Notes: generated by a model from the letters alone, not told the origin. DNA of 64,000 bases from Planctomycetota bacterium (GCA_965228735.1 OZ245838.1:7040001-7104000); one strand, 5' to 3'; positions 37,717 through 61,076 are shown, counted from the first letter of the stretch. Numbers and translations are program-made.

Positions 37717-38178
37717 ATGCCGCGCCGCCGCCAGAGCATCGCCTACACGATCCGCGACCTGCTGCCGATCGTCGTGCTCGGATCGCCGATCGTCTTCCTG
37801 CTCGCCGATCCCTGGAAGTCTTGAATCGAGCAGGAGGTGTGCGGCCCCCGGGTGGCGGCCGACGTGCAGCGCCTGGCCTTCGCGGCGGACGAGTTCTACG
37901 GCATTCACGACCGTTGGCCGAGTCACGCGGAGCTGCTCGCGATCGATGACTCGATGCCGGAGCGGGACGTCTGGGGACACGAATACACGTTCGAGTTCGA
38001 CGCCGAGGGCCACCTACAGGTCCGCAGTCCCGGCGTCGACGAACGGCGCCACACGGCGGACGACATCGTCTCGTGGGTGATGCGGGGCGGGCAGCGCTTC
38101 GAGGAACGCCAGGTCGTCCAGCAGCTGTTGGAGGAACGGGCGGCGCGGGAGCGGGCCGGCGAACGACCGCGTCGCTGA
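37717..38178 (+). CDS. GspG-like pseudopilin with an in-frame TGA at codon 36 (candidate selenoprotein or pseudogene)
   Basis: MPRRRQSIA|YTIRDLLPIVVLG prepilin-like N-terminus; TGA 37822-37824; same frame continues to DVWGHEY...RSPGVD...TADDI; TAAGTT 6 nt before the ATG. Confidence 0.6.
37842..37861 (+). promoter_or_regulatory. Candidate SECIS hairpin
   Basis: cggcc-c-cc-GGGT-gg-c-ggccg; loop starts 26 nt after the TGA. Confidence 0.35.
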
Positions 38179-38180
38179 GC

Positions 38181-39449
38181 CTATTCGTGGCGCAGCGCTT
38201 CGACGGGGTCCATCGTCGCCGCGCGCCACGCGGGGTAGACCCCGAACCCGACGCCGACCGCGGTCGAGATGCCGAACGCGAGCAGCACGTGATCGACGCG
38301 GACGATCGTGAGGTTGCCGCTCACGTGCGAGATGATCTGCGGGATCAGCAGGCCGAGCGCGACGCCGAGCACGCCGCCGCACGCGCTGAGCACCGACGTC
38401 TCGACGAGGAACTGGGCGATGATGTTGCTGCGCCGGGCGCCGAGCGCGCGGCGGACACCGATCTCACGCGTGCGCTCGGTCACGGTCGCGAGCATGACGT
38501 TCATGATGCCGATGCCGCCGACGAGCAGTGAGATCACCGCGATCGAGCCGAGCACGATGTTGAAGATCTGCGCCGTGGCCTCGCGTTGGCGCAGCAGCTC
38601 GAGCGGCACGATCAGCTTCACGTCGTCCTTCGCGCGGCGCCCGATCTCGAGCATGTCCTCGAGCAACAGCGACGTCGGGATCACGTCGTCGGTCGTCGGC
38701 ATCTGCAGCTTGATCTCGTGCAACTCGACCCGGGTCCGCTCCTCGCTGCCCATGCTGCGCTTGCGGATCTCATCGCCGAAACGGGCGCGCGAGGTCGAGA
38801 CCGGCACGAACATGCAGTCGTCGAGCGCCACACCGCCCGGGCTCGCCTCGCGGCCGAGGCCCGCGAGCATGCCGATGACGGTGAAGCGCGTCATGCCCGC
38901 CTGCACGGTGCTGCCGATCGGGTTCTCGATCGGGAACAGCGTCTCCGCCAGGCCATGGCCGAGCACGGCGACGTTCTTCGAGCGGTCGATGTCGACGGGC
39001 GACAGCCAGCGCCCCTCCTCGAGCTCGAGGCTCATGAGGTCGAGGTAGGGGACCTCGGTGCCGACGACGATGCTGCTCGCCCAGCGGTAACCCTTGCGCA
39101 GGCTGTGCGGCGTCTCGCGCACGCTGACGACGCGATTGGCATCGTCGATGAGCGTCCGGATACGGGTCGCGTCCTCGTAGGTCAGCCCGTAGGCGAACGT
39201 CTGCCAGCGGCTGCCCGAAATCGTCTCGGCCGTCTCGGGCGGCCGTTGGCTCCGCACCATGAGGTTGGTCGGGCCGAGCGCTTTGAGCTGCTCGAGCGCC
39301 GCGAAGCTCGCGCCTTCGCCAACGGCGAGCATCGCGATCACGGACGCGACACCGAACAGCAGCCCGAGCACGGTCAGGAACGACCGCAGCCGGTGCATGA
39401 GCAGGCTCTTCACTCCGAGCCGAGCCGTTCGAAAACTGCCGCGCAGCAT
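38181..39449 (-). CDS. MacB-like ABC transporter permease
   Basis: LRSFLTVLG, LLVGGIGIMNVML.TVTERTREIGVRRALGA, PAWRAATMDPVEALRHE. Confidence 0.93.
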   Translation of the reverse strand: MLRGSFRTARLGVKSLLMHRLRSFLTVLGLLFGVASVIAMLAVGEGASFAALEQLKALGPTNLMVRSQRPPETAETISGSRWQTFAYGLTYEDATRIRTLIDDANRVVSVRETPHSLRKGYRWASSIVVGTEVPYLDLMSLELEEGRWLSPVDIDRSKNVAVLGHGLAETLFPIENPIGSTVQAGMTRFTVIGMLAGLGREASPGGVALDDCMFVPVSTSRARFGDEIRKRSMGSEERTRVELHEIKLQMPTTDDVIPTSLLLEDMLEIGRRAKDDVKLIVPLELLRQREATAQIFNIVLGSIAVISLLVGGIGIMNVMLATVTERTREIGVRRALGARRSNIIAQFLVETSVLSACGGVLGVALGLLIPQIISHVSGNLTIVRVDHVLLAFGISTAVGVGFGVYPAWRAATMDPVEALRHE

Positions 39450-39461
39450 CGTCGCGTGGGC

Positions 39462-41240
39462 TCAGCCGCCCCCATTCGAGCCAGCACCGTTCGAGCCAGC
39501 ACCGTTGGAGCCAGCACCGTTCGGGCCGGCGTTCTCGGTCCCGCCGTCGCTGGCGGCCGACGTGTCGTCCGTCGCCTCGTCGGTCTCCCCGGTCGCTTCC
39601 GCGTCGGGCAACATCGCGCCCGGCGGTCGCACGAGGTGGATCTCGTCGCCCTCTTCGATCCCGGCGGCGAGCGCGACGTGCGTCAGGTTGCTGCCGCCGA
39701 CCTCGACCGGGGTCGCGACCGGACCCTCGTCCGTCGCGAGCCACACGTAGTGCTGGTCGCGCCGGCGTTCGAGCGCCGGCAGCGGGATGTAGAGCACGTC
39801 CTCGAGATCGCCGACCTGGATGGTCACGCTCGCGTTCATCCCCGGCCGCACCGTGCCGTCCGAGTTGTCGCGGTCGAGCGCGACGTGCACCTTGTATTCC
39901 TTGACCTCGCGGCTGCGGCGGGTCGGCACGGGCAGCGTCGAGACCGACGCGACGTGCCCCTCGAAGATCTGGCCGGGGAATGCGTCCACCTTGATCGCCG
40001 CGGGCTGGCCGACGACGACCTTGTCGACCTGCGCCTCGTGCACGCGCAACTCCGCCGTCATCTTGCGGATGTCGGGCAGGATCACGATGTCCTGGCGCTC
40101 GCGGACCTCCATGCCCTCGTAGACCGGTTCGTCCCAGTCGTAGCGGCCGTAGACGACGAGCCCGGAGGACGGCGCGAGCATCACCGCGTGCTTCAGCTGC
40201 TCGTTCCAGTTGTCGAGGCGGTCCTTCGCGAGCTTGTATTCGGCCTCCGCGCTGATGAGCTCGGCCGATTGCTGCACCCGGCGGGCCTCGTTCGCGGCCT
40301 TGACGCTCTCGAGCCCGAGCCGCGCGTTGTCTTCCTCTTGCTTGAGGCCGATCAGCGTCTCGTGCAGCGTGAACTTGACGAGCAGCTGCAGGTTGTTGAG
40401 CGCGACCGTGACGCGGGAGCGGTTGCGCTTGTGGTTGATGCGGTCACGTTCGAGTTCGTTACGCGTGATGAACCCGTTCGCCGCGAGGTCCTTGCTGTGG
40501 TTGAACGTGTCCTGGGCGAGTGCGAAGTCGGCGCGGGCGAGGCTGATCTCGTCGATCTGCGTGAGCACCTGGTTGGCCATCTCGCCCATCTCGAGGTCGT
40601 AGGCCGTCTCGGACCCGAGAATCTCGGCGATGCGCGCGACGAGTTCGTCCGCGCTCCGCGCCGGCAACAGGTCCGTCATGCCCTCGACGGCGAACAGCGC
40701 CTCGAGTTCGTCGACCATCTGACGGTTGGTGCCCGCGTTCTCGTCCTCGTTCGGGCCGCGCGCGGCCTGCGACGTGCGGGCCTGGCCGAGGAACTTGCCG
40801 AGCTTGATGCGGGCGATCTTGAGCCGGCTCTCGGCGGTGCGTTCGGCCGCGAGCAGCTCCTTCTCCATCACCTCGTGGTTCTTGCGCGCCTGCTTCACCG
40901 CGGCGTCGGCCCGTGCGACGGCGATCGCCTGGCTGGCCTGCTTCTCCTCGATGAGGCTCGCGTCGAGCTCGGCGACCTTCTCGCCCGGCTCGACCACCGT
41001 GCCCTCCTCGATCAGGTAGATCAGCGTGTTGCGCCCCTCGAGGCGCGACACGACGCGCGTGTCGGATTGGGCCTCGATCTCCGCGCGTTCGCGCACGGTC
41101 ACGGGGAGCGTGCCGCGGGTCACGGTGTAGCGCAGTTGATCCGTCGCGGTGGACGTGTCATCGCACCCGGCGAACACGCCGACCAGGCAGGTGATGGCGA
41201 GCGCACGAGCCGGGGCTGCAATCGAAGCGGATTCGGTCAT
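39462..41240 (-). CDS. MacA/HlyD-like efflux periplasmic adaptor lipoprotein
   Basis: Lipobox FAGC; EEGTVVEPGEKVAELD, APSSGLVVY, VRPGMNASVTI. Confidence 0.88.
   Translation of the reverse strand: MTESASIAAPARALAITCLVGVFAGCDDTSTATDQLRYTVTRGTLPVTVRERAEIEAQSDTRVVSRLEGRNTLIYLIEEGTVVEPGEKVAELDASLIEEKQASQAIAVARADAAVKQARKNHEVMEKELLAAERTAESRLKIARIKLGKFLGQARTSQAARGPNEDENAGTNRQMVDELEALFAVEGMTDLLPARSADELVARIAEILGSETAYDLEMGEMANQVLTQIDEISLARADFALAQDTFNHSKDLAANGFITRNELERDRINHKRNRSRVTVALNNLQLLVKFTLHETLIGLKQEEDNARLGLESVKAANEARRVQQSAELISAEAEYKLAKDRLDNWNEQLKHAVMLAPSSGLVVYGRYDWDEPVYEGMEVRERQDIVILPDIRKMTAELRVHEAQVDKVVVGQPAAIKVDAFPGQIFEGHVASVSTLPVPTRRSREVKEYKVHVALDRDNSDGTVRPGMNASVTIQVGDLEDVLYIPLPALERRRDQHYVWLATDEGPVATPVEVGGSNLTHVALAAGIEEGDEIHLVRPPGAMLPDAEATGETDEATDDTSAASDGGTENAGPNGAGSNGAGSNGAGSNGGG
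39472..39531 (-). repeat. 15-bp coding tandem repeat x4 (AG[P/S]NG)
   Basis: ccgttcgagccagca-like units at the 3' end of the adaptor gene. Confidence 0.85.
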
Positions 41241-41421
41241 TCGGGGCCCAGGGAGTCTAGGCGAGGATCGCCGCGCGCGAACGCGGAGATGCGCGACCTC
41301 AAACCTGTTACATCATCGTCGGGGCCGTCGCATGGCGCTCGGATCCCCGCCGGTCAGTTGCCCGAACCGCGAGATCGTGCAACCTCACGGCGAGTCCGCG
41401 CGGAGTAGGCTCGTGCGGCCG

Positions 41422-44400
41422 ATGTCTCCCGAAGCCCTGTTTCGCCAGTATCGCGACTTCGGCGACGCCGAAGCGCTCGGGGCCGTGTTCGACCGCCTCG
41501 CGCCGGAGTTGGCGCTGATCGCGGCCCATCTCGTCGGCGCTGACGCAGCCGAAGACCTCGTGCAGGCGACGTTTCTCGATGCGATCGAGCAGCGTGATCG
41601 CTGGGATGGCAGTCGTCCGCTCGCGCCGTGGCTCGTCGGTCTGCTCGGGATGCACGTGCGGCGGGCCCGACGCGAACGCGGTCGGTGGCCCGACGCCGGG
41701 CGTCTCGGGGATCGCCGGTCGGACGTCGATGACCGCGACGGCCCGGCAGCAGCGGCGGTATCGCGGGACACGCTCGCGCTCGTCCGGCGCACGGTCGCGC
41801 AGCTGCCCTCGCACTACCGGACCGTATTGTCGCTGCGCCTCGTCGACGGACTCGAGGTGCAGGCCATCGCGCGCAGCCTCGGCGTGCCGCTCGGAACGGT
41901 GAAGGCGCGGCTGCATCGCGGTCTCGATCTCCTGCGACGGACACTGCCCGCGGGGGTCGCGGGAGCGGTGGCTGCGCTCGGGCTCGTCGAGCCCGCGCTC
42001 GGTGCGGTTCGGGCCGCCGTCGTCGATGCGGCGATGCGGCCTGGCGTCGGTGCCGGCGTCGGCGGCGCGGTCGGCACGGGCGTCGGGACATTGGCCGTGA
42101 CGGGAGCCTGGATCATGAAGCAGTGGATCATCGGGAGCGCGATCGTGCTCGTCGTGTTCGCGGGTTGGCTCGTCGTGCGGTCGGACGCGACGGAGCCGGG
42201 GCAAACCGAAGCCGGGTCAGCCAGTCCGGCCGGTGCTGCCACGGCGGCGCCCGGGGAGCGATCGTCGAACCCCGCGCCCGTCGCTGCGCCGGCCACCGTC
42301 GAACGTGCGATCGTGCCAGCCGCGACGCCACAGTCGCGACTGGGCGCGTTGCGCGTGGCCGTCGTGTGGCGTTCGGACGGTGCGCCGGTCGCCGGCGTGC
42401 AGGTCGAATTGTATCGGCACGGTCGGCGGCGTGCCGTCGACATCGCGCATAGCGCCGACGATGGGGTCGTGACCTTTGCGGACTTGCCGCCCGGTGACTA
42501 CCGGGCGAGCATCGTCGCGCTGCCGCATGCGCCGTGCGAGATTCGGATCGCAGCCGGGACCGCGATCGAACGCGAACTTCCGGTCGGCGGCGATGTGCGG
42601 CTGCGTGTTCTGGTCGCAACCGCGGACGGCGCGCCGTGGTCCGACGCGGCGGTGTGGGCCTACGATCACCTGGGTGGCCCCCTCGGCGGGCGACTGCTCG
42701 GGCGCACCGACGTCGCCGGGGTCCTCGAGTATCGCGGCCTGCCGCCCGCGTCCGTGTGGGCGCGTGCCGTCGGACGCATGCCGAGTCGACTCCACGCCCT
42801 GCCCTCGGACCTCGCGCGCGGGGCTCGGCCGTCGCCCACCGAAGTCCTGCTCGTTCTCGGTGGCTCGGGGGCCGCAGTGCATGGTGTCGTGACGGATCCC
42901 GACGGTCGGGTGGTCCCGGACGCGATCGTCGCGGTCGCCGTCGTGGACGAGTTCGGCGGCACGGACGATCCGCCCGAGGTCACGACGACGACGGACGCGG
43001 CCGGCCGCTTCGCGCTGTCGGAGCTGCCGGTCGGCGAGCGCAACATCGTCGCCACGGCGCCTGGGTTCGCGGCGATCGAGGCGCGGGTCGAGACGCTGGC
43101 CGACGAGGTCGCGTTCGTGCAGCTGCAGCTGCGGCGTGGTGCGAGCATCCGCGGTCGGGTGCGCGATGCCGGCGGCCGGCCGGTCCCGTCGTTGCCGGTC
43201 ACCGTGGGCACGGACGGCGGCGCCACCGGCATCCAGCGCCACGGAGGACGGTTGCGCACGACGCGGACCGACGAGGCCGGGGACTATCGGATCGACGGGA
43301 TCGTGCCGGGGAACGGCAGGGTGCTGGTGCATCTGCAGCCGGTCAGCAAGCGCGAGTTCGTGTTCGTCGATGGTGAGGCGTACGAGTTCGACGTGCAGCC
43401 GGCGCCCCGTGGCGCGATCACAGGCGTGCTCGTCGACGAGGACGGCGAACCGCTCGCGGGTTGGTCCGTGGGGGCCTCGAGTGGCAGGTTCGGCGCCGCC
43501 CCGTTCGCCACCGCCACCGATGCAGGCGGACGGTTCGAGCTCGCGGTTCCCGCCGGCCGAGCGTACGAGCTGCTCGTCTTCGCGCCGCGACAGGGCCACT
43601 GGACCCCGTTCTCGTCACGGCCCCGGCTCGCCGTGTCGGGGGTTTCTCCCGGGGGCGAGCCGATGCGGTTGGAGGTGCCGGACGCGGCGCTGGGCGATGC
43701 CGTCCTGCATGGCAGCGTCGCGCTCCCTGATGGCGAGGCGAGCCGCGCGTCGCTCGACCTGCGCGGGATCGTCGCGGGTAGTGCAGCCGTCGTGGTCGAT
43801 CGTGTCACGATCGCGGCGGGGGCGGCGCCGACGTTCCGATTCGAGCACCTGCCGCCGGGACGATACCGACTCGCGTGCGACTTCGGTGGCCGCGGTCGCA
43901 TCGTGCGTGACGACATCGTCGTGCGAGCGGGTGAGGAGCGCGAGCTCGGCCCGCTGGGCCTCGGGGGGCAAGTGCCGGTTCGCTTGCGGTTGCGGCGCCC
44001 CGACGGTGCACCGGTGACCGGCGCGAGCCTGCGGCTGGTGCCGGGTTGGATCGCGCTCACGGAGTCGCGCCCCGGAGAGTACGAATCTGCGCCGGTGCAG
44101 CTCGGGCGGTTCGAGGTTTCGGCGTTCGGGCCCGGGATCGCCCCGGCGAAGTGGACCATCGATGTCGGTGATGACACGCCGATCGATCACACGCTCGCAA
44201 CGGCGTCGACCGTCGAGTTCGTGATCTCGCCGCGGTCCGAGCGCAAGTCCTGGCGCGGAACGCTCGCGATCGAGCTGCGCGCGACCGGCCCGCGGCCGCT
44301 CGTCCAGGCGATCGTCACTTTGCCCGGTGACCCGATGTACTCGTGGTCGCTCGGGCTGCTGCCGGGCACGTACACGCTGAACGTGCGTGACAACCAGGGC

Positions 44401-44463
44401 AGCGTCGAGCGCACGGTGACCGTCGGCGCCGGCGCGCAGCGGTTCGACGTTCCGTTGCGCTGA
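41422..44463 (+). CDS. ECF sigma factor with TM helix and extracytoplasmic carboxypeptidase-regulatory-like repeats
   Basis: AEDLVQATFL, LGVPLGTVKARLHRG; TM helix; repeated G.V.D..G.PV / TD..GRF motifs. Confidence 0.85.
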   Translation: MSPEALFRQYRDFGDAEALGAVFDRLAPELALIAAHLVGADAAEDLVQATFLDAIEQRDRWDGSRPLAPWLVGLLGMHVRRARRERGRWPDAGRLGDRRSDVDDRDGPAAAAVSRDTLALVRRTVAQLPSHYRTVLSLRLVDGLEVQAIARSLGVPLGTVKARLHRGLDLLRRTLPAGVAGAVAALGLVEPALGAVRAAVVDAAMRPGVGAGVGGAVGTGVGTLAVTGAWIMKQWIIGSAIVLVVFAGWLVVRSDATEPGQTEAGSASPAGAATAAPGERSSNPAPVAAPATVERAIVPAATPQSRLGALRVAVVWRSDGAPVAGVQVELYRHGRRRAVDIAHSADDGVVTFADLPPGDYRASIVALPHAPCEIRIAAGTAIERELPVGGDVRLRVLVATADGAPWSDAAVWAYDHLGGPLGGRLLGRTDVAGVLEYRGLPPASVWARAVGRMPSRLHALPSDLARGARPSPTEVLLVLGGSGAAVHGVVTDPDGRVVPDAIVAVAVVDEFGGTDDPPEVTTTTDAAGRFALSELPVGERNIVATAPGFAAIEARVETLADEVAFVQLQLRRGASIRGRVRDAGGRPVPSLPVTVGTDGGATGIQRHGGRLRTTRTDEAGDYRIDGIVPGNGRVLVHLQPVSKREFVFVDGEAYEFDVQPAPRGAITGVLVDEDGEPLAGWSVGASSGRFGAAPFATATDAGGRFELAVPAGRAYELLVFAPRQGHWTPFSSRPRLAVSGVSPGGEPMRLEVPDAALGDAVLHGSVALPDGEASRASLDLRGIVAGSAAVVVDRVTIAAGAAPTFRFEHLPPGRYRLACDFGGRGRIVRDDIVVRAGEERELGPLGLGGQVPVRLRLRRPDGAPVTGASLRLVPGWIALTESRPGEYESAPVQLGRFEVSAFGPGIAPAKWTIDVGDDTPIDHTLATASTVEFVISPRSERKSWRGTLAIELRATGPRPLVQAIVTLPGDPMYSWSLGLLPGTYTLNVRDNQGSVERTVTVGAGAQRFDVPLR

Positions 44464-44524
44464 ATGCCGACGCGGGCAAATCGGCGAATGCGCGGGCGCG
44501 CCTCGTGTGATATGCCGGCGACCC

Positions 44525-45115
44525 ATGACCTCGATGCGCCCGCTGCCCGTTCGTTCGTCGGTGCTGGCCGTCCTGGTGTTCGCCGCCTGTCAGGGCGCCG
44601 CTGCCGATCGTGGACCGGATCCGTCGCCAGCTGCGGTCGATCCGCGTCTGGCGGTCGCGCCGTTGCCCTACACCGCCGAGCAGATTCGCGAAGCGCACCC
44701 GAGCGGAACGACGATGCGCTTTCGGGTCACCCAGCCGAACGGCACCGGGGTGCAGAGCATGCAGTTCTCCGACTCCGACCCGATCGGGGTGACCGTGGCC
44801 ATGGCCAGGGTCGATGCGAGTGGTGCGACGACGGGAAAGGCGGTGACGACGCGCTCGACGTGGCGTGAGCTGCAGTCGCATGCTGCGTTCCCCGCGCTGC
44901 AGACCCGGCGCGAACGGTCGCGCTGCGTCGTGCCGGCCGGCGACTACGCGTGCTGGCACTACACCGTCTCCGAGACGACGGCCGACGGCCGGGCGGTGAC
45001 GTCACAGTACTGGTTCGCGGACCGCAAGCCGGGGCCACCCGTCCAACTCGTTCGCGCCGTCGACGGCCAGGAGGTCTATCGCATGGAACTCGTCGACTAC
45101 CAGCGCGGGCGCTGA
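44525..45115 (+). CDS. Hypothetical lipoprotein
   Basis: Lipobox FAAC; VPAG.Y.C beta-rich segment. Confidence 0.65.
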   Translation: MTSMRPLPVRSSVLAVLVFAACQGAAADRGPDPSPAAVDPRLAVAPLPYTAEQIREAHPSGTTMRFRVTQPNGTGVQSMQFSDSDPIGVTVAMARVDASGATTGKAVTTRSTWRELQSHAAFPALQTRRERSRCVVPAGDYACWHYTVSETTADGRAVTSQYWFADRKPGPPVQLVRAVDGQEVYRMELVDYQRGR

Positions 45116-45122
45116 TCGCAGG

Positions 45123-45539: not shown

Positions 45540-45792
45540 CGGGAATCGGAACGTTGGTGGCCGAACACGCGCGGTAGTTGTCACGAAGTCGAACGGCCGA
45601 TTCGGAGCCCGGACGCGCCGTTGGGTTTTCGTCAACACGCAGCGCTCGTGCCCGTTGTGTGGGCGCCACGTGAAGACTGCGTCGCCCCATCGTGGGGGGC
45701 GAACTCCACCCTGGTCGCGCCTATGATTTTCGGCGCGGAATCCCCCGCAAAATCTCGCCCGGCGCTGCTTTCTGCAGCCACACTTCTACGAC

Positions 45793-46884: not shown

Positions 46885-46905
46885 GCTGGCGAGCTGATCA
46901 GCGTT

Positions 46906-46928
46906 CGGCCCGCCACCCCGGCGGGCCG
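46906..46928. terminator. Hairpin between convergent genes
   Basis: cggcccgcc-acccc-ggcgggccg, 9-bp stem, no clear U-tract. Confidence 0.4.
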
Positions 46929-46977: not shown

Positions 46978-48198
46978 CTACTTCGCGGCGGTCTCGACGC
47001 GGCGCAGCGCGATCCCGAGCGGCTTCGGCCCCGGATCACGGTTGCGCTGGTTGAAGCGCCACGCACCGCGCCGTTCGCCGACGGCGACGAGCTCGAAGCT
47101 CTCGAAGTCGCCCGTCTTGCTGTGCCAGCGTGACCGGCCGTAGAGCGTGGCGCGGTAGCCTTGCTGGCCGGCGTCCATCACGGCCTCGCCGCGATACTCG
47201 ATCGTCCAGACCGAGCGCTCGACCGCCGTTCGTTGCATGGTCAGGGTCGCGGTCTCGATGTGCTGCTCGCGCCAATGCGGCGCCTGGCCGCGAACGTTGT
47301 CGACGAGCACCTCGCGATAGAGCCGTCGCACGACCTCGTCGTCGACCGGTCGGGGTTTCTTGCTCTTCGTCACGAACACCTTTGGGTCGTCGAACGCGAT
47401 CCAGTTGCGGTTCCAGGCCCACTTCACGAACTCGGTCCAGTTGCGGTCGTCGAAGCGGTTGCGCTGATATCGGCGCACGGACTCGGGGTCGTCCATGCTC
47501 GCGAGGTCGCGCAATGAAACGGCGAATGCGAGCGCCTTGCCCTCGATGTCGGGCGGCATCACCCGGTCGGCGACCGGCACGGGCGCGTTCTCGTAGCCGC
47601 GCCGCTGGCGCAGCTTCTGCCAGCGCTGCAGCGCCCGGCGCAGGCGCTCGCGCATGTCCTCGCGGTCACCGCCGGCTGCGAACCGCCCTTCGAGATACTC
47701 GGCGTCGGGGCCGATCATGTAGATGCCCTGTTTGGTTCCCGGGTGGTTCCAGTCACCTTCGGGCATCGACTCGCCGTACTTGCGGAAGAAGCGGTGGGTC
47801 GGATCGTTCGCGATCCGCTGCACGTGCTGCGGGTTCTCGGGGTAGAGCCCGTAGGCCTCGTCGGCGACGGTGACGAACTCTCGGCTGAGCTTCTGGATCT
47901 CCGGGTCTGACCAGACCAGTTGGCGTCCGCGGACGCCGTTGTTTCAAGTGCAGCCGAGCGGGTGGCCGTTCATCGTCCAGAGCAGGATCGGGCGACCGAG
48001 CTCTCTGGCCTCCGCGATCGCCGGGCCGAGCCGGTTGCGCCAGCCGACCTGCTGGAACGACAGCTCGAGCTCGTCGGGCTCGATGGCCTCGAGCCAGTCG
48101 TCGAGGTTCTTCGGTCCGAGGGTGGGCAGCTCGGTTTGCGCGATGCTCGGCGATGCCAACGCGAACGCCAGCGCCACTGGCGACAGTGCGATCCTCAT
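46978..48198 (-). CDS. Secreted thioredoxin-like selenoprotein candidate (GCT-U, Sec85)
   Basis: Signal peptide; W...AIAEARELGRPILLWTMNGHPLGCT-TGA(47944-47946)-NNGVRGRQLVWSDPEI, open in frame for 321 more codons. Confidence 0.8.
47904..47937 (-). promoter_or_regulatory. Candidate SECIS region
   Basis: mRNA after UGA: GGCGUC-CGCG-GACGCC (+7..+22), then GGUCU-GGUC-AGACC (+27..+40). Confidence 0.55.
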
Positions 48199-52261: not shown

Positions 52262-52324
52262 GCCGTCGCACCGTAGAGAACGGCGCAGCTATCGCAAGTC
52301 GCGAGCGTGCTGCCGTGCTCGGCC

Positions 52325-55300
52325 TTACCGCACGACGAAGTCGCGTTCGATCTCGGTGCGGCTCGCCGGGATCGTGAGAGGTTGATCACGCAGCGGCTGA
52401 CCCATGCCACGTGAGATCGCGATCGTGTAGCTCGGGCCGCGGGTCAGCACGATGCGAAAGCGGCCGTCCTTGCCCGTGCTCTGCCAGCCGCTCACGGGGT
52501 GGAGTTCGAGCGTGCCGCCGTGCTGCGGCACGTGCGTTCGGCCGCCGACGATCGCGCTGCCGACCGGCTTCTTGGCATTGTCGATCGTGCGACCCGTGAC
52601 CGTGACCTCCTCGCGACCGACGTAGCGGCCGTCGCGGAACGGCACGAGGTCGATTCGCACCGGCGTCGGATCCCGGCTCGGCAGCGCATCGCAGCGGAAC
52701 CTTTGTTTTTCGAACGGATTCCGCACATGCACGTACCGAGCGTTCGGGTCGGCGTGGAACGTGAGCGCCTGTTCGCGGGCGTCGAGGCCCTCGGCGCGGA
52801 AGCGCCCCTCGGCATCCGTGCGCACGCTGACGGTCGTGCCGTCCTGCCCTTGCCCATTCACGTAGACCCGCCCGTTCGCCAGCGGCTCGCCCGCGACGGT
52901 TACGACGCCCGCTACGGCGAGTCCGGTCCAGCGCAGCGTGAAGACGTATCCCGGCTGCGCGTCCTTCGGCAGCTGCAGTGACCAGCGGCGGCCGTCCGGC
53001 GCGGTCACGTACAGGTAGGCCTCCGGCACGAGATCCAAGGGCACGCTGCCGTCCGCCCCGACGTCGACCGGCTCGTGATCGGGAAGCTGCGCCGCGGACG
53101 CGCGGGCGCGGAAGCCCTGGAACCCGCCATCGGGCCCTTCGCCGGCGAACGCGAGGAACGGGCGGATCGTCGGGTTGGCGGGAATCCGCAGTTCAACGAC
53201 AGGTCGTTCGCCGGCCGCGGCTTCGATGGTCTCGACGATCGCACCGACCCACGAGTGCTCGGCTGCCTGCCGCGGCGCAAAGACCTTGAGCTGGCCCGGG
53301 GCGAACGGGCCGAGTACGGCCTTGCCGGTGGCGTCGGTGCGGGCGCGCCGCTGCTGATGATCGACGGTTCCGATGGCGACGTTGTGATCGGCGCGCGGCT
53401 TGCCGTCCGGGCCGACGACGTGGACCTCGACGTGCACGGCGCCCGCGAGGTCGATCACGCGGTCGTCGTCGTCAGCCGCCACCGCTACCGCGAACTGCGC
53501 TTCGCAGAGCTCGCCGACGAACACCTCGCACAGGTAGTTGCCGGCCGGCGCCGTGAGCTCGAACTGGCCCTCGCTCGTCGTAGTCGCCGCGTCGATCACG
53601 CACTCGGTGTTGTGCTGCCAGTTGAGCTGATTGAACGGGCGCAGCTGCACGTTGGCGCCGGCTACCGGGTCCGTTCCACGCACGACGCGGCCCGCGAAAC
53701 GGGCCGGCGCGCCGGGTTCGAGCTGGACCTCGTGCGGCTGCAGGTCGGCGCCGAAGAGCTCGATGCGTTGCAGGACCGCCGGCCGATACCCGTCGGCCCA
53801 CACCGTGACATCGAGCTGACTCGGAAACACACCGCGATGCTCCCGCGGCATCTCGAGCACCTGCTGCGCCCGGAACGGCGCGAGCGCGAACCAGCCGTCC
53901 TCGGCGTGGAACGTGCCGGTGTGTCGCGGCGTGCCGTTGTCGTCCGCCGAACGGATTCGGATCGTCTCGATCGGTCGCCCGGTCGCCTTGTCCGTGACAT
54001 GGATCCGCGCCCCGCCCCAACGCGTCACGTGCACGGTGCCCGCCTCGTCGGTCGACAGGCTCGTCGACGTGATCCAGCGTTGCCCGTTCTGCTTGATGAT
54101 GTTGCGGGTCACGGTCCACCCCGGCGTGAGGCACGTGACGCTGACGCTCGTTGCGCCGACCCGCGCCGTGAAGCGGCCCTTGCCGTCGGTCTCCGTGAAC
54201 CACTGGCCGCCCTCGCCTTCGAGTCGGAGCCGCAGCGGTTCGGGGACCAGTTGTTCGTGGTCGGTGAGCACGAACCCGACGAGCTCGCGCACGGGCCACA
54301 GGCTGATCGTGAGGGCCGCGTTCGTCGCGCCGTCCGTGCTCGTGGTCGAGCGGACCACGCCGAACCGCGGGCCAGAGGTTGGGTCACCCTCGAACGCGAA
54401 CCGGCGCGGCGCGCGGCCGTCGGCGCGGGCCTCGACCACGACGCCGGTCAGGGGGACCGGCAGTGCGCAGCGGCCGTCCGAGTCGGTCGTGCGGCGCAGC
54501 AGCGCTGGCTTGGTCTCGTCCCGAGGCGGCACGAGGAACGGGTGCTCGGCGCCGCGCAGCGTGACGTCGAGGGGCAGGTCCCGTGGGATGCGAACGGATT
54601 CGCCGAGGTCGTGGGGGATGCCGGTCGCACCCATCTGCGTGGTGCCGGCGAGCTCGCGCTGCAGCTCGAGCAGCGTGAGCTCGCGGGGGCCGAACAGCGC
54701 GAGGTCGGCGCCTTCGATCGGCTGTCTCGTCACGCCGTCGATCACCTGCACGTCGAGAGTCCAGGCCGCTTCGACGACGGCATCGACGACGGGGGCGGCG
54801 ACGCGCTCGGCGGCCGCGGGTGTCACGTTCCGGTCGCTGGCGCGCTTCGGCGTCGACGGCTCGACGGACGCCGGGGTGGGGGCGGGTGCCGCTACGTGAT
54901 CGGTCCGTGGCGTGTCGCTCTCGCCCGGCCACCAGGCCACGCCGAGAACGGTCACGCAGACGGCGACGAGCGCTGTGAGAACGACGGTTTGCTTGCTCAT
55001 GACGATTCCCAGAACGGTGATGCCGGCGCCCGTTGCGGCGACGGCGCCCGCGGCCGCCTTGGCCGCGGTGAGGCGCGCGCCGGCGGCGATGACCTCGGTG
55101 CGGATCGCGGCGAGCCCGCGCGTCGCGGTCATCGCGGTCGCGGCGAGGGCGGTGGCGAGTCCCGCCGGCAGCGCGCGCCGCGCCATCTCGAGGCCGCGGT
55201 GGATCTGCGAGCGCACGGTCGCCGGGCTGCGGTCGAGGACGAGCGCGATCTCGGCCGGCTCCATGCCGTGCACGAGGCGCAGCAGGGTCGGCTCGCGGAA

Positions 55301-55696
55301 CGGTTCGCGCAGGCGTTCGATCGCGTTGCGGGCCGTGTCCGACAGTTCGCGGTCCGCGACGCCGTCGGCCGGCTGCGGCTCAGTGCCCGAGACCTGATCG
55401 CCGTCCGCGCCGAGGTCGGGCGAGCGTCGACTGCGGCGACGCTCGCTCTTGGCCCGGTTGGTCAGGATCCCGGCAAGCCACGGCGTGACGGACCGCTTGC
55501 CCTCGAAGCGGTCGGCGCTCTCGATGGCGGCGAGGAACGTGTCCTGCAGCAGATCTTCGGCGGCGGCGACGTCGCGGGTCAGGTGCGACGCGAGGCGCAG
55601 CAGCTCCGGCGCGACCCGGTCGAACAGCTTCGCGAGGGCGTCGACCTGATCGCGGTCGCGCCAGCGCAGAAACAGTCGGGTCGCTCGGTCTCGCAT
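52325..55696 (-). CDS. ECF sigma factor with TM helix and carboxypeptidase-regulatory-like repeats
   Basis: AAEDLLQDTFL, ATVRSQIHRGL; TM helix; repeated TD..GRF beta-sandwich motifs. Confidence 0.85.
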   Translation of the reverse strand: MRDRATRLFLRWRDRDQVDALAKLFDRVAPELLRLASHLTRDVAAAEDLLQDTFLAAIESADRFEGKRSVTPWLAGILTNRAKSERRRSRRSPDLGADGDQVSGTEPQPADGVADRELSDTARNAIERLREPFREPTLLRLVHGMEPAEIALVLDRSPATVRSQIHRGLEMARRALPAGLATALAATAMTATRGLAAIRTEVIAAGARLTAAKAAAGAVAATGAGITVLGIVMSKQTVVLTALVAVCVTVLGVAWWPGESDTPRTDHVAAPAPTPASVEPSTPKRASDRNVTPAAAERVAAPVVDAVVEAAWTLDVQVIDGVTRQPIEGADLALFGPRELTLLELQRELAGTTQMGATGIPHDLGESVRIPRDLPLDVTLRGAEHPFLVPPRDETKPALLRRTTDSDGRCALPVPLTGVVVEARADGRAPRRFAFEGDPTSGPRFGVVRSTTSTDGATNAALTISLWPVRELVGFVLTDHEQLVPEPLRLRLEGEGGQWFTETDGKGRFTARVGATSVSVTCLTPGWTVTRNIIKQNGQRWITSTSLSTDEAGTVHVTRWGGARIHVTDKATGRPIETIRIRSADDNGTPRHTGTFHAEDGWFALAPFRAQQVLEMPREHRGVFPSQLDVTVWADGYRPAVLQRIELFGADLQPHEVQLEPGAPARFAGRVVRGTDPVAGANVQLRPFNQLNWQHNTECVIDAATTTSEGQFELTAPAGNYLCEVFVGELCEAQFAVAVAADDDDRVIDLAGAVHVEVHVVGPDGKPRADHNVAIGTVDHQQRRARTDATGKAVLGPFAPGQLKVFAPRQAAEHSWVGAIVETIEAAAGERPVVELRIPANPTIRPFLAFAGEGPDGGFQGFRARASAAQLPDHEPVDVGADGSVPLDLVPEAYLYVTAPDGRRWSLQLPKDAQPGYVFTLRWTGLAVAGVVTVAGEPLANGRVYVNGQGQDGTTVSVRTDAEGRFRAEGLDAREQALTFHADPNARYVHVRNPFEKQRFRCDALPSRDPTPVRIDLVPFRDGRYVGREEVTVTGRTIDNAKKPVGSAIVGGRTHVPQHGGTLELHPVSGWQSTGKDGRFRIVLTRGPSYTIAISRGMGQPLRDQPLTIPASRTEIERDFVVR

Positions 55697-55862
55697 TCGT
55701 TGGTTCTGGACTGGGGATGGGGGGGCGTTCCCGGATTCTCGCCAAAACCGTCAGCGCGTGCAGCGTGGGATCCCGCGCGCCGCATCCGATGAATACGAGC
55801 GTGTGACGAAGCGGGGACGGCAACGTTGCCCTCCGGCCGGCGGAACTCGCTACCCTGCGCCG

Positions 55863-56885
55863 ATGAACACCACGATCGGCAGCGGTCTCGCCGCGTTCGT
55901 TCTCGCCGGCGCGCTCCAGGCGCCGAACCTGCTCGCGCAGAATCACGTGTCGTATCCGCAGGACACGACGACGGGCGGCAACGGCAACAACATCGCGTTC
56001 GGCGTGAGTTCGGGTGCCAGCCTCGACGAAGGGCGGTATCAGCAGCTGATCCCGCGCACGCATCTGCCGAGCACGGGCGCCGTGATCCTCGGCGTGGAGG
56101 TCGTCTCGCGGGCGCTGCAGCCGCACACGCTCACGCACGAGTCGCTGCAGATCACGCTGAGCCACGACGCGCGGACGCAGCTCGATCCGAGCGCGGCGAC
56201 CAACCTGCCCGCGCCGGTCGTCGTGCTAGCAGTGCAGAACTTCAGCAACGCCTACGCCGCGGGGCAGTGGTCGGCGATCCAGTTCACGACGCCGTTCGTC
56301 TACGACGGGGTGAGTGACCTCGTGATCGACGTGCAGAAGGTGTTCGACCGATCGACGTCGACGGTGCCGGTCGGGGGCTCGAGCATGAGCCGAGCCGGCC
56401 ACCCGGGACGGCCCGACCTGCCGGACTCGCGCTGGGCATTCGGGTCGTACGGCAGCGGCGCTGCGACGAGCTCGACGTTGAACTTCTTCGGTGACCCGCT
56501 GCTGTTGCGTCTTCAGGTCGGCGGCCTGCCGACGACGGTGCTGCGCGGCGACCGGGTGGGCAACACCGGCAACTTCTTCGCGCTGGCCAACCCGTTCGAG
56601 GTCGAGGTGCGCGCGGCGAGCGGCGATCTGTTCGGGGTCTTCGCGTCGACGAGCTTCCAGGCACCGATGACCTTTCCGCTGCTGTCCGGCACGCTGCAGA
56701 TCACGCTGCCACAGACGCTGAAGGTCGGCCTGATGCCGGCAACCGGGGTCGATGTCACGACGATCACGCTGCCGAACAACAACGCGTTCGTCGGCACGCA
56801 CCTCACGTTCCAGTCCGGCGTCGTGCCGAGCGGCGCGGGCTCGGGGCTCTGGACCAACGCGACGGACATGTTCGTGAATCCGTAG
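55863..56885 (+). CDS. Secreted protein with shared C-terminal domain
   Basis: Signal peptide ending LLA-Q; RYQQL, PFVYDG.SDLVID; C-terminal LPNNNAFVG...FQ...WTNA. Confidence 0.78.
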   Translation: MNTTIGSGLAAFVLAGALQAPNLLAQNHVSYPQDTTTGGNGNNIAFGVSSGASLDEGRYQQLIPRTHLPSTGAVILGVEVVSRALQPHTLTHESLQITLSHDARTQLDPSAATNLPAPVVVLAVQNFSNAYAAGQWSAIQFTTPFVYDGVSDLVIDVQKVFDRSTSTVPVGGSSMSRAGHPGRPDLPDSRWAFGSYGSGAATSSTLNFFGDPLLLRLQVGGLPTTVLRGDRVGNTGNFFALANPFEVEVRAASGDLFGVFASTSFQAPMTFPLLSGTLQITLPQTLKVGLMPATGVDVTTITLPNNNAFVGTHLTFQSGVVPSGAGSGLWTNATDMFVNP

Positions 56886-56937
56886 CGCGATAGCGATCGC
56901 CGAAGCCGCCGCCGAACGTATGCTCCCTGCCCGATCC

Positions 56938-57300
56938 ATGAAGCAACTGCTGTCCCCGCTGCTCCTGCTGCTGTTTCTCCTGCTGGGCGCCTGCGCCTCC
57001 GCGCCGCCCGGCCGCACCGTGTACCTGCTCGGCGACTTCTCGCCCGCGAACGAACGCGCCGAGCTCGTGCGCTGGCTCGAAGCCAACGGCCACACGGTCG
57101 TGCAGACGATCGACGATTCGGTCGAACTCGTCGTCGTCGGCCGCAACCCGCGCGGCGCCGATGGCGCAGGCGCGGTGCCGCTCGACGAACTGCCGGACTA
57201 CAACACCGCGATCGCCCTCGACCTCGACCTCGTCGCGGCGCGCGACCTGCCGGCCCGCCTCGGCCACGGCGGGCCCTACGTGCCGACGGTCGATCGCTGA
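56938..57300 (+). CDS. Lipoprotein with a BRCT-like domain
   Basis: Lipobox LGAC; VYLLGDF...RAELVRWLEANGHTVVQTIDDSVELVVVG. Confidence 0.6.
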   Translation: MKQLLSPLLLLLFLLLGACASAPPGRTVYLLGDFSPANERAELVRWLEANGHTVVQTIDDSVELVVVGRNPRGADGAGAVPLDELPDYNTAIALDLDLVAARDLPARLGHGGPYVPTVDR

Positions 57301-57306
57301 CGGCGC

Positions 57307-58935
57307 TCAGTCGGGCAGCGTGATGTCACCGAGGTCGACGTCCGCGTTGACCGGCACTTCGAACTCGGTCAGCAGGGTGTGGTGGTCCTGCCAACCGACG
57401 CGCAGGTCGTGGCGGCCAGGGCGAACGGTGAACTCGAACGCGCCGGTCGCGTCGGAATGCCCGCCGCGACCGCCCCAGTCCAGGTGGTCGTGGGCGTGAG
57501 CGGTGATCAGCACCCGCGGCGCGGGTTCTCCGGACCGGGTCCGCAGAGTGCCGCGAGCCCGCTGTGGACGCCGAACTATGACCGGTTCGAGTTCCGTCGT
57601 GCGGCCGGCGGTGAGGCTGAAACGCGGACTCCTCCCCTGGAGTTCAAACTTCTCGACGGCGACGAACACGCCGTCGCCGATGTCCGCGTTGAGGCCCGCG
57701 AATGCGAATCGACCGGTCGCATCGGTGTCCGTCGTGAGGATCCGGCTCGTGTGCGGCCCACGCGGCGTTTGCCAGTGCAGGAAGAGCGTGGCCGATGCGC
57801 CGGCGAGTGGCGCGCCGTCCGCCGTCACGCACCGGCCAGTCACCCCGGCGGCGGCCGCAGTGTGGATGACGATCTCGTCACGGATCGGCGGGTAGCGATA
57901 CAGCATGTGGCGGCAGTGCAGGCTGCGTGCGGCCTCGGGATCGCGCTCGTCGACGACCCGGGGGCCGTCGCCGAGAGTCAGGACGATGTGATTGTCGTCC
58001 GGTGTGCGGCAGACGAACTCGAACCGACCTTCCCCATCCGTCGTGAGGCGATGATCGGGGCCGAAGTTCTCGTGGACGAGGACCACGTGCCCGGCGACGG
58101 GGGCGTCGCGCTCGTCGAGGACCCGGCCGCGCACGATCCGTTCGGGATACGGGCGAAACGTCGTGACCCAGTCGATCCGGCCCGGTCGCGGGTCCGGGTC
58201 GAGTCCCTGGTTGATCGGGTCCGGATACATCCCGTCACACCAGATCCCGGCCGAGAGTTCGAGGTCCGTCGGGAGACCCGCCAGCGTGACCTCGTCGGTC
58301 TCGTCGATCGTGCCCTCGATATGAAGGCTCGGGGGGTAGTTGGAGAAGAGGGTGTACCGCGTCGGCAGGTAGGCCCCTTCGCGCTCGATGCGAATGCGGA
58401 TCCAGCGCCCGTTGGCCGGCTCGAGCCGCAGGTCGAGCGTCGTATCCGATTCGACGACGCGTTCGAGAACGACCATCTGGTAACCGTTGCGCCACACGTT
58501 GAAGTGGTGACGACCTGGCTCCAGCTCGAGCGTGTAGCGCCCGTCCCGATCCGTGATGGCCTGCTCGTAGCTCATGCGAACGGCGACCTCCGGGATCGGG
58601 TCGCCATGCGTATCCGTGACCTGGCCCGTGATCGACACCGTGTTCGTGAACGCGAAGCTCAGCGCCTGGCCACCTGCTTCGCGGTCGTGGTGCCACCCGA
58701 CCAGGTCCTTGTGCCCCGGCTTCGAGACGACGAGGCGCGATCGGCGTTCGTCGTCGCCGGGGACCTCGAACGCGAACTCGCCACGTTCGTCGGTCGTGGT
58801 CGCGGCGGTCGCCGTCGTGGAGTCGCCGCGATAGAGCGTGACGGCCGCCCCCGCGAGCGGCTGCCCGTCGATGTCGACGACGAGGCCGGCCAGTTGGATC
58901 GGGGTTGCAGCGTTCTGTCCGTTCGGGCGCGGCAT
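57307..58935 (-). CDS. Carboxypeptidase-regulatory-like repeat protein
   Basis: Several G.V.D..G.P / TD..GRF repeats; no obvious signal peptide. Confidence 0.75.
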   Translation of the reverse strand: MPRPNGQNAATPIQLAGLVVDIDGQPLAGAAVTLYRGDSTTATAATTTDERGEFAFEVPGDDERRSRLVVSKPGHKDLVGWHHDREAGGQALSFAFTNTVSITGQVTDTHGDPIPEVAVRMSYEQAITDRDGRYTLELEPGRHHFNVWRNGYQMVVLERVVESDTTLDLRLEPANGRWIRIRIEREGAYLPTRYTLFSNYPPSLHIEGTIDETDEVTLAGLPTDLELSAGIWCDGMYPDPINQGLDPDPRPGRIDWVTTFRPYPERIVRGRVLDERDAPVAGHVVLVHENFGPDHRLTTDGEGRFEFVCRTPDDNHIVLTLGDGPRVVDERDPEAARSLHCRHMLYRYPPIRDEIVIHTAAAAGVTGRCVTADGAPLAGASATLFLHWQTPRGPHTSRILTTDTDATGRFAFAGLNADIGDGVFVAVEKFELQGRSPRFSLTAGRTTELEPVIVRRPQRARGTLRTRSGEPAPRVLITAHAHDHLDWGGRGGHSDATGAFEFTVRPGRHDLRVGWQDHHTLLTEFEVPVNADVDLGDITLPD

Positions 58936-59104
58936 GGTGGCATCTGAGGTCGCGGATCGGCCGGGGAGGCGCGAGCGCGATCCTGCACTGCACCGCAGGA
59001 TAGTCGAGCCGGAGTGCTGCGAGTCCGGCAACCGCGGTGACGCTGGCCGGGTCGGTGACTATTCGCCGGTGTCGCTCGAATCCCTGGACCCTGGAGGCCT
59101 CCGT

Positions 59105-60220
59105 ATGCCCCGTTCGCTCTTCACGCCGTTCGCCGCTGCCCTGTTTGCCACGACGGCTCTGACGCAGACGTTCGTCGTCGACGCCCAGAATGGCCCCGGC
59201 ACGAACTTCACGACCATCGCCGCTGCCGTCGGCGCCGTGCCCGATGGCGCGACGCTGATCGTGCGGCCAGGGATCTACACCGGATTCTCCGTCGTCCAGA
59301 AAGGCGTGAACGTGCTCGCGGATCCGGGCGTCCATGTCTACTCGGGCATCACGATTCTCGAGGTCGGACCGCAACAGAAGGTCGTCATTCGCGGGGTGGA
59401 GTGGGGCAACCCGACCGGGGTCGGAACGTTGGCCGTGCGCGATTGTCGCGGCCCCGTCCTCGTCGAGGACTGCGCGGGGACGCCGGCCAACGCGCCGTTC
59501 GGCGGGACGATCTCGATCCAGGCCAGTGACTCCGTGCACCTCGCGCGGACCCTGGTCGTCAGTCCCCTGTTCGAGCCGGTCGAGACGTCGGGCAGCGACG
59601 TGACGATCACCGACAGCCAGCTGCGCGGCCCGATCGGCCGCACCGGTCTGCAGCAGATCGGTGGCCGCACGCGGATCAGCAATACCTACGTCGAGGGCGC
59701 TGGGAGCGTGCTGCCCGCGTCGCCGACGAGCGTCGTCGGCATGCTCGGCGGCGAACTGACCCTCGACGGCGACTCGGCGCTCGTCGGTGCCGCGCCCGTC
59801 ATGGTCGGCATCGAAGGCAACGGGAACGCGATCGTCGACCCCGGCGCGACGATCCTCTCGACGAATCGGATCGGCGCCGGGATCACCGAGTTCTCGCGCG
59901 CGCTCGCGCGCTGCTCGGCGTCGACCGCGGCGCTCGGCGGCACGGCCACCGCCACGATCGAAGGCCCGTCCGGCAGCTTCGCGGTGGCGCTCGCGGGCTT
60001 CGTCGGCGCCGCGCAGAACGTGCCGGGACCGATGTATCCGCTGTGGATCGACCTCGGGACGATGATCCCGGTGGTCAGCGGCGTCACCCCGCTGACGTCG
60101 AGCTACACGGTGCCGAACGCGGCGTGGGTGCGCGGCATCACGTTCGGTTGGCAGGGTCTGGTCTACGACCAGACGAACGGACTGCAGCTCAGCAACCCGG
60201 GCATCTACACGCACTGGTAG
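59105..60220 (+). CDS. Secreted beta-helix-like protein with shared C-terminal domain
   Basis: Signal peptide; FVVDAQNGPGTNFTTIAAAV...VRPGIY; C-terminal VPN....G..FGWQG...LSNP. Confidence 0.8.
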   Translation: MPRSLFTPFAAALFATTALTQTFVVDAQNGPGTNFTTIAAAVGAVPDGATLIVRPGIYTGFSVVQKGVNVLADPGVHVYSGITILEVGPQQKVVIRGVEWGNPTGVGTLAVRDCRGPVLVEDCAGTPANAPFGGTISIQASDSVHLARTLVVSPLFEPVETSGSDVTITDSQLRGPIGRTGLQQIGGRTRISNTYVEGAGSVLPASPTSVVGMLGGELTLDGDSALVGAAPVMVGIEGNGNAIVDPGATILSTNRIGAGITEFSRALARCSASTAALGGTATATIEGPSGSFAVALAGFVGAAQNVPGPMYPLWIDLGTMIPVVSGVTPLTSSYTVPNAAWVRGITFGWQGLVYDQTNGLQLSNPGIYTHW

Positions 60221-60238
60221 GAGCGTGCGCGAGCGCCG

Positions 60239-60265
60239 CGGGTCGCGGCAGTGGCCCGCGACCCG
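60239..60265. terminator. Hairpin between convergent genes
   Basis: cgggtcgcgg-cagtggc-ccgcgacccg, 10-bp stem. Confidence 0.45.
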
Positions 60266-60269
60266 GCTG

Positions 60270-61076
60270 CTACTTGCCGTTCTTCTTGCCTGCTTCCGCG
60301 CGCTTGTTCTTCAGGTAGGCGCGCCAGTACTTGCGGTACTTCTGCGGCACCTTCGGCGTGCTGCCGCGGTGCTTCAGTGAGTTGAGGTAGGGCTGCAGCT
60401 CACCCCAGGTCTCCGCGCCCTCACCCGGGCGGCCCGGGCCGGTGGCGTTCTCGGGCGGGTTGGTGCCGCGACGGTTCGCGCCGCGCGCGTCGCGTTCGTT
60501 GCCGTCCGCGGGTTGGCTCGCCTGCTGCTCGTCACCCTGTTCGGTCGGATCGCCCGTCGGCTGGCGGAGATCCTGCTTCGCGAACTCGGGCGTGCTGGAC
60601 TCGCGGCGGTTCTGCGGCGAGCGCTGCGACGCCGCGCCAGTCGCCTTCGAACCCGGCTCGTTCTCGCCGCGACCGCTCTGGTCTCGGCCATTCTGACGTT
60701 GCGACGAGTTGTTCTGGCCGGACCGGCCAGAGCCACCGCCGCTTCAATTGCCGCACTGGTCCTTCAGCTCGTGCAGCTTCTCGATGAGGCGGTCGATGCC
60801 ATCGGCAGCGGCCTTGCTGCCGTCCATCGAACGCGCGAGCTTGTCCTTCGACGTCGTGCGGCCGCTCTGTGACGCGCTCGACTCGAGGAGCATGCGGTCG
60901 ACGTCTTCGAGCTGCTCGGTGACCTCACGCGCGATCTCCTGGATCTGCCGCATGGTGTCGGACGTGGTCGGAGCGGTGCTTGCGTCTTGCGCGGTGAGCC
61001 GGGCTGGGCAGAACAGCAGCGTGGCGAACGCCAAAGCGATCGGTGCCGCGAATCGTCTCGGGTCAGGGCCGGTCAT
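60270..61076 (-). CDS. Secreted coiled-coil/low-complexity selenoprotein candidate (CGN-U, Sec111)
   Basis: Signal peptide; ...LKDQCGN-TGA(60744-60746)-SGGGSGRSGQ..., open in frame to WGELQPY...VPQKYRKYWRAYLK...TAG. Confidence 0.8.
60713..60731 (-). promoter_or_regulatory. Candidate SECIS hairpin
   Basis: mRNA UCUGGCC-GGUCC-GGCCAGA starting at +13 after the UGA, GGUC in the loop. Confidence 0.7.

Follow-up and report, generated by a model that had tools for sequence, protein, structure and literature searches.

Three genes in a stretch of planctomycete DNA each contain an in-frame TGA codon that is predicted to be translated as selenocysteine (Sec) via the standard SelB/SECIS route, and they appear to cluster by chance, as members of a selenoproteome predicted to comprise about 49 genes, the majority with products that are likely to be exported. 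I estimate the probability of this overall reading at about 0.88. The stretch analyzed, called the window here, is 64,000 nucleotides in length (G000:C1:7040001-7104000) and belongs to a genome assembled as a single 7.19-Mb contig with 69% GC; homologs of the window genes are labelled mainly Planctomycetota. G000 denotes the window's own genome, G001 a relative of the same genus, and the other G numbers denote relatives in a 61-genome set. A hexamer coding model trained on G000 revealed coding sequence on either side of three TGAs in positions 37717-61076, in the genes designated c1, c2, and c3. Apart from the TGAs of c1 and c3, only that of c2 is flanked on each side by coding sequence and accompanied by a hairpin within this span. 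Each TGA is followed by a canonical hairpin, and both codon and hairpin are conserved across relatives. The incorporation of selenium into the three proteins is predicted from these sequence features together with the sel machinery found in the genome. The features are as follows.

37717-38178, + strand: c1 gene, 153 aa, a single ORF once the TGA is read through; predicted Sec is U36
37822-37824, + strand: predicted Sec codon TGA of c1 (U36); TGA in 10/10 aligned copies
37842-37864, + strand: putative SECIS hairpin of c1, loop CGGGT, beginning 25 nt after the UGA; score at least 17 in 10/10 copies
48210-46978, - strand: c2 gene, 410 aa, a single ORF once the TGA is read through; predicted Sec is U89
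47946-47944, - strand: predicted Sec codon TGA of c2 (U89); TGA in all 80 homolog loci kept
47899-47922, - strand: putative SECIS hairpin of c2, loop GGTC, beginning 32 nt after the UGA; score at least 13 in 77/80 homolog loci
61076-60270, - strand: c3 gene, 268 aa, a single ORF once the TGA is read through; predicted Sec is U111
60746-60744, - strand: predicted Sec codon TGA of c3 (U111); same column in G001, G020, and G032
60713-60731, - strand: putative SECIS hairpin of c3, loop GGTCC, beginning 20 nt after the UGA; stem kept in G001

The initial annotation had described three genes with export signals, each with a TGA near a Cys and a hairpin with a GGU-containing loop 20-32 nt after the UGA. 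The TGAs, hairpins, and loop distances were all found as described, and the N-termini of c1, c2, and c3 are all hydrophobic by a simple heuristic. The neighboring Cys did not hold for c1, where the column of Cys42 is Cys in only 3 of 10 aligned copies. It was also correct that the three genes share no operon, unrelated genes lying between them, and that the window contains no sel genes. The window also contains two long ORFs with ECF sigma-factor-like N-termini, at 41428-44463 (+) and 52325-55696 (-); in the latter, Sigma70 r2/r4 regions are fused to carboxypeptidase-regulatory-like domains. A window site at 39462-64 was rejected as an ABC-transporter junction without a hairpin.

Does this organism have the means to decode Sec? 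The full decoding set (selA, selB, selC, and selD, for SelA, SelB, tRNASec, and SelD) was found elsewhere in G000, and the SelD gene has its own in-frame TGA. SelA was detected in 60 of the 61 genomes of the order. Thus, the lack of Sec machinery, which had been named as grounds for abandoning the idea, does not apply. Could the UGA instead specify tryptophan (code 4) or be passed by generic read-through, or do the TGAs result from sequencing errors or pseudogene lesions? In favor of such mundane origins, in-frame operon junctions are many in high-GC genomes (157 TGA, 102 TAG, and 32 TAA in G000). However, TGA is the main terminal stop in G000 (3419 of 5015 coding segments), and the only tRNA with a UCA anticodon is tRNASec, tRNATrp having CCA. 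Errors and lesions are opposed by the conservation of Sec codons across genera and phyla, and the c1 sequence is identical in contigs from three runs, although the source of the assembly may be among those runs. A single run that may be RNA gave 0 contigs on c1, which says nothing about its expression. These alternatives are largely refuted and seem very improbable.

A hairpin with a GGU loop might be a product of GC richness, in which case it should occur equally often after true TGA stops, as the initial annotation pointed out. I compiled a trusted set of 32 Sec sites chosen by their redox motifs (SelD and 31 sites taken from a list drawn up without a hairpin filter). The GGU-loop rule was satisfied by 3/3 candidates and by 15 of these 32 sites, against 178/3174 terminal TGAs, 87/1503 TAG/TAA stops, 255/4000 Trp codons, and 292/4000 Cys codons. 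The hairpin is therefore about 8-fold enriched at motif-picked Sec sites over true TGA stops and is not a GC artefact. A rule limited to pentaloops was discarded because it missed tetraloops (18/32 at a score of at least 14), and it was widened once to G[G/T] loops, in agreement with the published bSECIS consensus of an apical-loop G[G/U] located 16-37 nt after the UGA (PMC13188914). With the wider rule at a score of at least 15, 28 of 32 motif-picked sites were positive, compared with 13-16% in the four controls. Since this rule was tuned on the trusted set, which includes c2 paralogs, out-of-sample tests weigh more: c1 scored at least 17 in 10/10 copies and c3 in 4/4, and c2 scored at least 15 in 23/29. 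In a family related to the candidates, all 10 rows with U scored 16-20 and all three rows with Cys scored 0-7. At four conserved Sec codons (206071, 839879, 2784758, and 4263499), the downstream sequence does not satisfy this rule in G000 or in G001; they possibly represent a second SECIS class.

How many such genes does the genome have? In-frame read-through candidates with a hairpin score of at least 15 made up 53 of 241 TGA sites, 13 of 152 TAG sites, and 3 of 44 TAA sites. When candidates were compared with 1.94 Mb of G001, 23 of the 36 TGA sites with a hairpin and a match had conserved flanks and either TGA or Cys in G001, against none of the 61 TAG/TAA sites keeping the stop in this way; some of the matches are paralogs. 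Further evidence came from paralog searches, family scans, searches of relatives, and a comparison with as much as 2.3 Mb of G001, in part selected around candidates. The accepted set has 49 genes with 52 Sec codons in G000, a count from which C-terminal Sec or very short genes may be missing. For 41 of the 49 genes, a homolog elsewhere has U or C at the Sec column, and the other eight were accepted on a domain motif and a hairpin only; four accepted Sec sites fail the hairpin rule. Independent searches for AhpC-TSA and Thioredoxin_7 gave 14 TGA-containing matches, all 14 of which had been on the list beforehand. By a hand count, about 60 of the 150 AhpC-TSA matches listed in 13 genomes carry TGA, so the Sec richness looks lineage-wide. 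Two unbiased scans of G000 against G001 were dominated by antisense matches and matches of low complexity, and no credible further Sec site was seen among the rows listed.

Several candidates were rejected. The site at 222294 in G000 is an operon junction, for which G001 shows a TAG and a frame shift. Junctions were also recognized at 4856408 (BufA precursor/BufB) and 3613315 (a Kelch gene and an HTH-shikimate kinase gene), and at 2785064 a BCP stop is followed by another gene. Those at 4349919, 4577434, 4654131, 6666112, 6714717, and 3878292 are terminal stops on comparison with G001. The TGAs at 1641495, 5411355, and 5446986 are kept in G001 with a weak hairpin and were tentatively read as operon junctions, and 666354 has no homolog found and is likely non-coding in that frame.

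The density of three genes had been taken to imply a Sec-rich organism. The outcome was right, but the reasoning was not: when 49 genes were placed at random, some triple fell within 23 kb in 37% of 20,000 trials (p about 0.37), so the triple is a chance cluster. The proposal of a large envelope selenoproteome stands with a similar reservation. Export-like N-termini were found in 38 of the 49 Sec genes and, by the same lenient rule, in 2927 of 4898 genes (p 0.012). The background rate is thus 60%, and much of the export bias is that of the proteome itself.

For c2, the assignment of the TGA as a Sec codon is nearly certain. It encodes an exported-type protein with a thioredoxin-fold domain (residues 50-203) carrying a CxU motif in GHPLGCTUNNG, followed by a C-terminal beta domain. 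G000 has four c2 paralogs, and 30 of 61 related genomes contain homologs. Scanning species genomes recovered at least 557 loci, of which 80 from Planctomycetota, Armatimonadota, and a few other taxa were kept and read. No Cys form was found among these 80, and the classic Cys/Sec-pair test thus fails for c2. All of the best 120 database proteins listed are fragments after the UGA; they cover 63-77% of the query, as expected if they begin there. In the AlphaFold (AF2) model (pLDDT 87.6; strand 75-80, U89, helix 90-99), the CxU lies where the active-site helix begins, after strand 1, as in a thioredoxin fold. The best structural match of residues 50-203 is the DsbD-gamma-like 3f9u (Z 10.7, rmsd 2.1, 108 aligned), and the fold of this domain also matches 2lst, 3ph9, and 3ira. 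Most likely, c2 would act in the periplasm as a selenol/thiol oxidoreductase whose CxU heads the active-site helix of its DsbD-gamma-like fold. It has the fold, the placement of the redox residue at this helix, and the export signal in common with Thioredoxin_7/DsbD-gamma/DsbH, VPGUxxT (NF041382/3), and Trx7/PDZ (NF041199) proteins, and differs from Thioredoxin_7-type and VPGUxxT selenoproteins by its GHPLGCTUNNG motif, its additional C-terminal beta domain, and the lack of a Cys form among the loci read. No Pfam family (E<=0.01) and no NCBIfam family (E<=0.1) matched c2, the VPGUxxT and Trx7-PDZ models included. In a synonymous-codon shuffle, its hairpin gave p = 0.08. The c2 protein is related to that of 2546238 (hhalign 87.7%, E 3.4e-6), and the active-site segments of c2 and of 2546238/5497385 presumably resemble that of animal selenoprotein N (SELENON), which is a lead only. 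At G000:C1:4856162-4857274 (L106), a Bufferin-type RiPP precursor (BufA2-like) and the MNIO maturase BufB adjoin a c2 paralog.

It is very probable that the c1 TGA is a Sec codon as well. The c1 protein is membrane-anchored and has a GspG/pseudopilin fold, with the motif PxxSUI where the TM helix meets the pilin domain. S35, U36, and I37 are invariant in the 10 aligned copies. A class-wide search of 301 genomes gave 15 matches at E<=1e-24, all of the window's c1 family and each with one TGA; the next-best match was at 3e-15. All seven database matches are fragments of 85-113 aa that begin after the UGA. Hence, as the initial annotation expected, gene callers fragment such genes, c1 (7/7 entries) and c2 (120/120 listed) alike. 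Neither a Cys form at the Sec column nor a conserved Cys partner was found among the 10 aligned copies, so the Cys/Sec-pair test fails for c1 too. The c1 hairpin follows in part from the encoded amino acids (p 0.04-0.30 per copy in synonymous shuffles).

The AF2 model of c1 (pLDDT 88.5) shows the TM helix, a short break at PxxSU, and the pseudopilin domain. From residue 36, it matches EpsG 4lw9 (Z 9.5, rmsd 2.0, 84 aligned); the best Foldseek E was 0.012, and a weak T2SSG match was found in 4 of 10 copies. D84, G106, D108, D115, and D116 are invariant and lie in what I take to be the Ca-binding loop region of GspG-type pseudopilins. Prepilins have a class III signal peptide with the motif G|FxxxE, and no GFxxxE site was seen in the 10 aligned copies. 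No T2SS genes were recognized in the 1.5-kb flanks of eight c1 loci, whose neighbors vary. Thus, c1 residues 36-120 share the globular pseudopilin fold of GspG/PulG/EpsG (PF08334), matching EpsG and PulG, whereas c1 differs in having no GFxxxE, a helix broken by PxxSU, no recognized T2SS neighbors, and the Sec at a domain junction. It resembles a tethered pilin-fold surface protein and was not filed as GspG. Uncleaved and tethered to the membrane, c1 would present a lone Sec at the outer membrane surface, which would most likely bond with the Cys of a partner, another copy of c1, or a soft metal. I propose this function only tentatively. The membrane-anchored protein of 2927091 (-) (G000:C1; L237:8531-9250) likewise has a lone Sec directly after a TM helix; it has no Pfam family, and its TUSS motif and hairpin (score 25) are kept in G001.

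The weakest and most unusual of the three cases is c3, although its TGA too is likely to be a Sec codon. The protein is exported-type, Q/G-rich, and likely coiled-coil, and contains CGNU (CxxU). No Pfam match was found, and among named Atlas clusters DUF4175 is closest (0.77), a lead only. The family is present in 45 of 61 relatives, and among 30 loci read, TGA occurs only in G000 (CGNU), G001 (CGNU), G020 (CGLU), and G032 (SGLU). Most of the 31 rows of the c3 tree have neither Sec nor Cys at that place, and the Cys residues near it in the homologs L028, L036, and L042 are unaligned to the Sec column. G000 also has a Sec-free paralog at 314807-315611, the last gene of an operon which I presume to be BatA/vWA-like. 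After the TGA, the net indels relative to G001 are -30 and +18 nt, and the frame is kept; no start in the frame of the C-terminal half gives its own ORF of at least 60 aa. The constraint is weak and equal on both sides (pN/pS 0.307/0.442 before the TGA, 0.308/0.453 after). The c3 hairpin is not explained by the protein sequence (synonymous-codon shuffle p=0.0015), and its score is at least 17 in all four Sec copies.

Are the TGAs of c1 and c3 real stops or selenium-dependent switches? The main product would then be a short N-terminal peptide, the full-length protein being made only at plentiful Sec-tRNA, and the Sec would be a regulatory linker rather than a reactive residue. The absence of a conserved Cys partner in c1 fits such a switch, as does the position of U111 of c3 at the boundary of a helix and a disordered linker, missing from most homologs. 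On the other hand, SUI is invariant in c1, and the tree of 31 rows, with Sec in four, needs two changes; a single Sec clade is rejected (p-AU 0.0008). Sec was thus gained twice at the same place in c3, and three of the four Sec copies carry a Cys three positions before it. I consider the switch unlikely. In the main reading, c3 would be a duplicated structural protein that has newly acquired a CxxU redox or metal site, a role that I suggest with considerable doubt.

What kinds of proteins make up the set? About 33 of the 49 genes belong to known families or motifs, mostly redox, and about 16 are uncatalogued, seven of them thioredoxin-type and nine without a recognized thioredoxin-type fold at the Sec.

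Known kinds: SelD, Prx/BCP, TlpA, Trx7, DsbD, Grx, MsrA, VPGUxxT, AhpD, ArsC, Rdx, deiodinase-like, HMA, rhodanese, DG-like
Uncatalogued, thioredoxin-type (7): c2 (four genes), 2546238, 5497385, 3235945
Uncatalogued, non-thioredoxin (9): c1, c3, three FG-GAP, ASPIC/UnbV, 5150736, 2927091, double-Sec 2123/2372

The use of Sec in non-canonical secreted or structural proteins, as the initial annotation envisaged, is real for about nine genes. It is a minority use: about two thirds of the set are known families, and a thioredoxin fold is present in c2 itself. The 16 genes have no identifiable family in Table 1 of PMC13188914 and matched no NCBIfam selenoprotein model, in a scan covering all but 2927091 and two c2 paralogs; the families of Haft and Tolstoy 2025 were compared via these two sources. 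No Sec was seen among five molybdopterin-oxidoreductase matches in G000, and a search for GPx in G000 (93% complete) found none.

Among the individual loci, the gene at G000:C1:5457300-5460272 (L109:801-3773 +) encodes an ASPIC/UnbV and FG-GAP protein with D[CL]USxFWR, and U and hairpin are present in 6/6 loci. Three FG-GAP repeat proteins with UC...PQFVD (G000:C1:406817 (-), 3065085 (+), and 5872224 (-)), one of them fused to a methyltransferase, keep the TGA in G001. The exported protein at 5150271-5152226 (L108:772-2727 +) has DWLUMCL (UxC) in an unnamed domain joined to DsbD_N, with U in 10/10 loci. The exported protein at 1929-2525 (L090:1430-2026 -) has two Sec residues (GIGGU and GLGU), both TGAs being kept in G001; it is weakly HMA-like with no family match. 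A VPGUxxT type 2 protein (NF041383) at 6693398-6694438 (L258:899-1939 -) has a second Sec in an MsrA-like half, and both are kept in G001. At 204483-205540, tandem peroxiredoxins comprise a Cys copy and a Sec copy; the latter has Cys in G001 with the hairpin kept (score 21), indicating a recent Sec/Cys switch.

It may be that the selenoproteome is real but ordinary, composed mostly of known thioredoxin-type families in a lineage rich in exported proteins and no larger than that of equally searched Sec-rich bacteria. The 33 genes of known kinds and the 60% background export rate speak for this, and the 46-63 genes of the BSepDB top ten are known families only (PMC13326102), which understates other genomes. 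It is opposed by the 16 genes without a family and by the predominance of anaerobes among the richest organisms stated in the review PMC13188914. I regard this view as possible but rather doubtful; it is compatible with the main reading and would lower its novelty alone. In the bolder alternative, to which I give slightly less than even odds, this order of oxygen-respiring Planctomycetota would be an overlooked Sec-rich lineage with an envelope selenoproteome rivalling the largest known. The role of Sec would be that of a surface cross-link or a metal/redox switch rather than of an enzyme active site, in uncatalogued scaffolds (the pseudopilin fold, the FG-GAP and ASPIC/UnbV propellers, and the c3 coiled-coil), the last having gained Sec twice at one site without an aligned Cys intermediate. 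G000 has two heme-copper oxidase (COX1) genes and one further weak match, which suggests that it respires oxygen. In the main reading too, the organism would run envelope redox and metal chemistry with Sec while respiring oxygen.

According to a 2026 review (PMC13188914), anaerobes predominate among the bacteria richest in Sec, and aerobes seldom retain selenoproteins; another paper (PMC5029168) states that 78.3% of Sec-rich organisms are anaerobic, Sec users overall being both aerobic and anaerobic. If the prediction is true, a planctomycete that has heme-copper oxidases and encodes about 49 selenoproteins, three quarters of them export-like, is a clear exception. Several families, including non-enzyme scaffolds, would be added to the 119 catalogued, and those with no Cys form seen would escape searches for Cys/Sec pairs. 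Hundreds of 'hypothetical proteins' in databases would be fragments missing the signal peptide and the active site. The titles and abstract openings listed contained no description of planctomycete selenoproteomes, a bacterial SELENON, or Sec pilins.

In comparison with known systems, the mechanism shows no difference from bacterial Sec decoding: all four components (SelA, SelB, SelD, and tRNASec) are present, and c1-c3 have an in-ORF G[G/U] loop within the consensus distance. What differs is the targets, which are mostly envelope proteins. In size, the 49 genes with 52 Sec codons are similar to the largest published selenoproteomes, the Olavius delta-1 symbiont with 63 and the BSepDB top ten with 46-63, among which no Planctomycetota appear (PMC13326102); since BSepDB tallies known families and the present count includes about 16 uncatalogued genes, this is not like for like. 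The present set differs also in belonging to a planctomycete with heme-copper oxidases. A known recoding mechanism serves a gene set that is unusually large, envelope-biased, and equipped with uncatalogued scaffolds.
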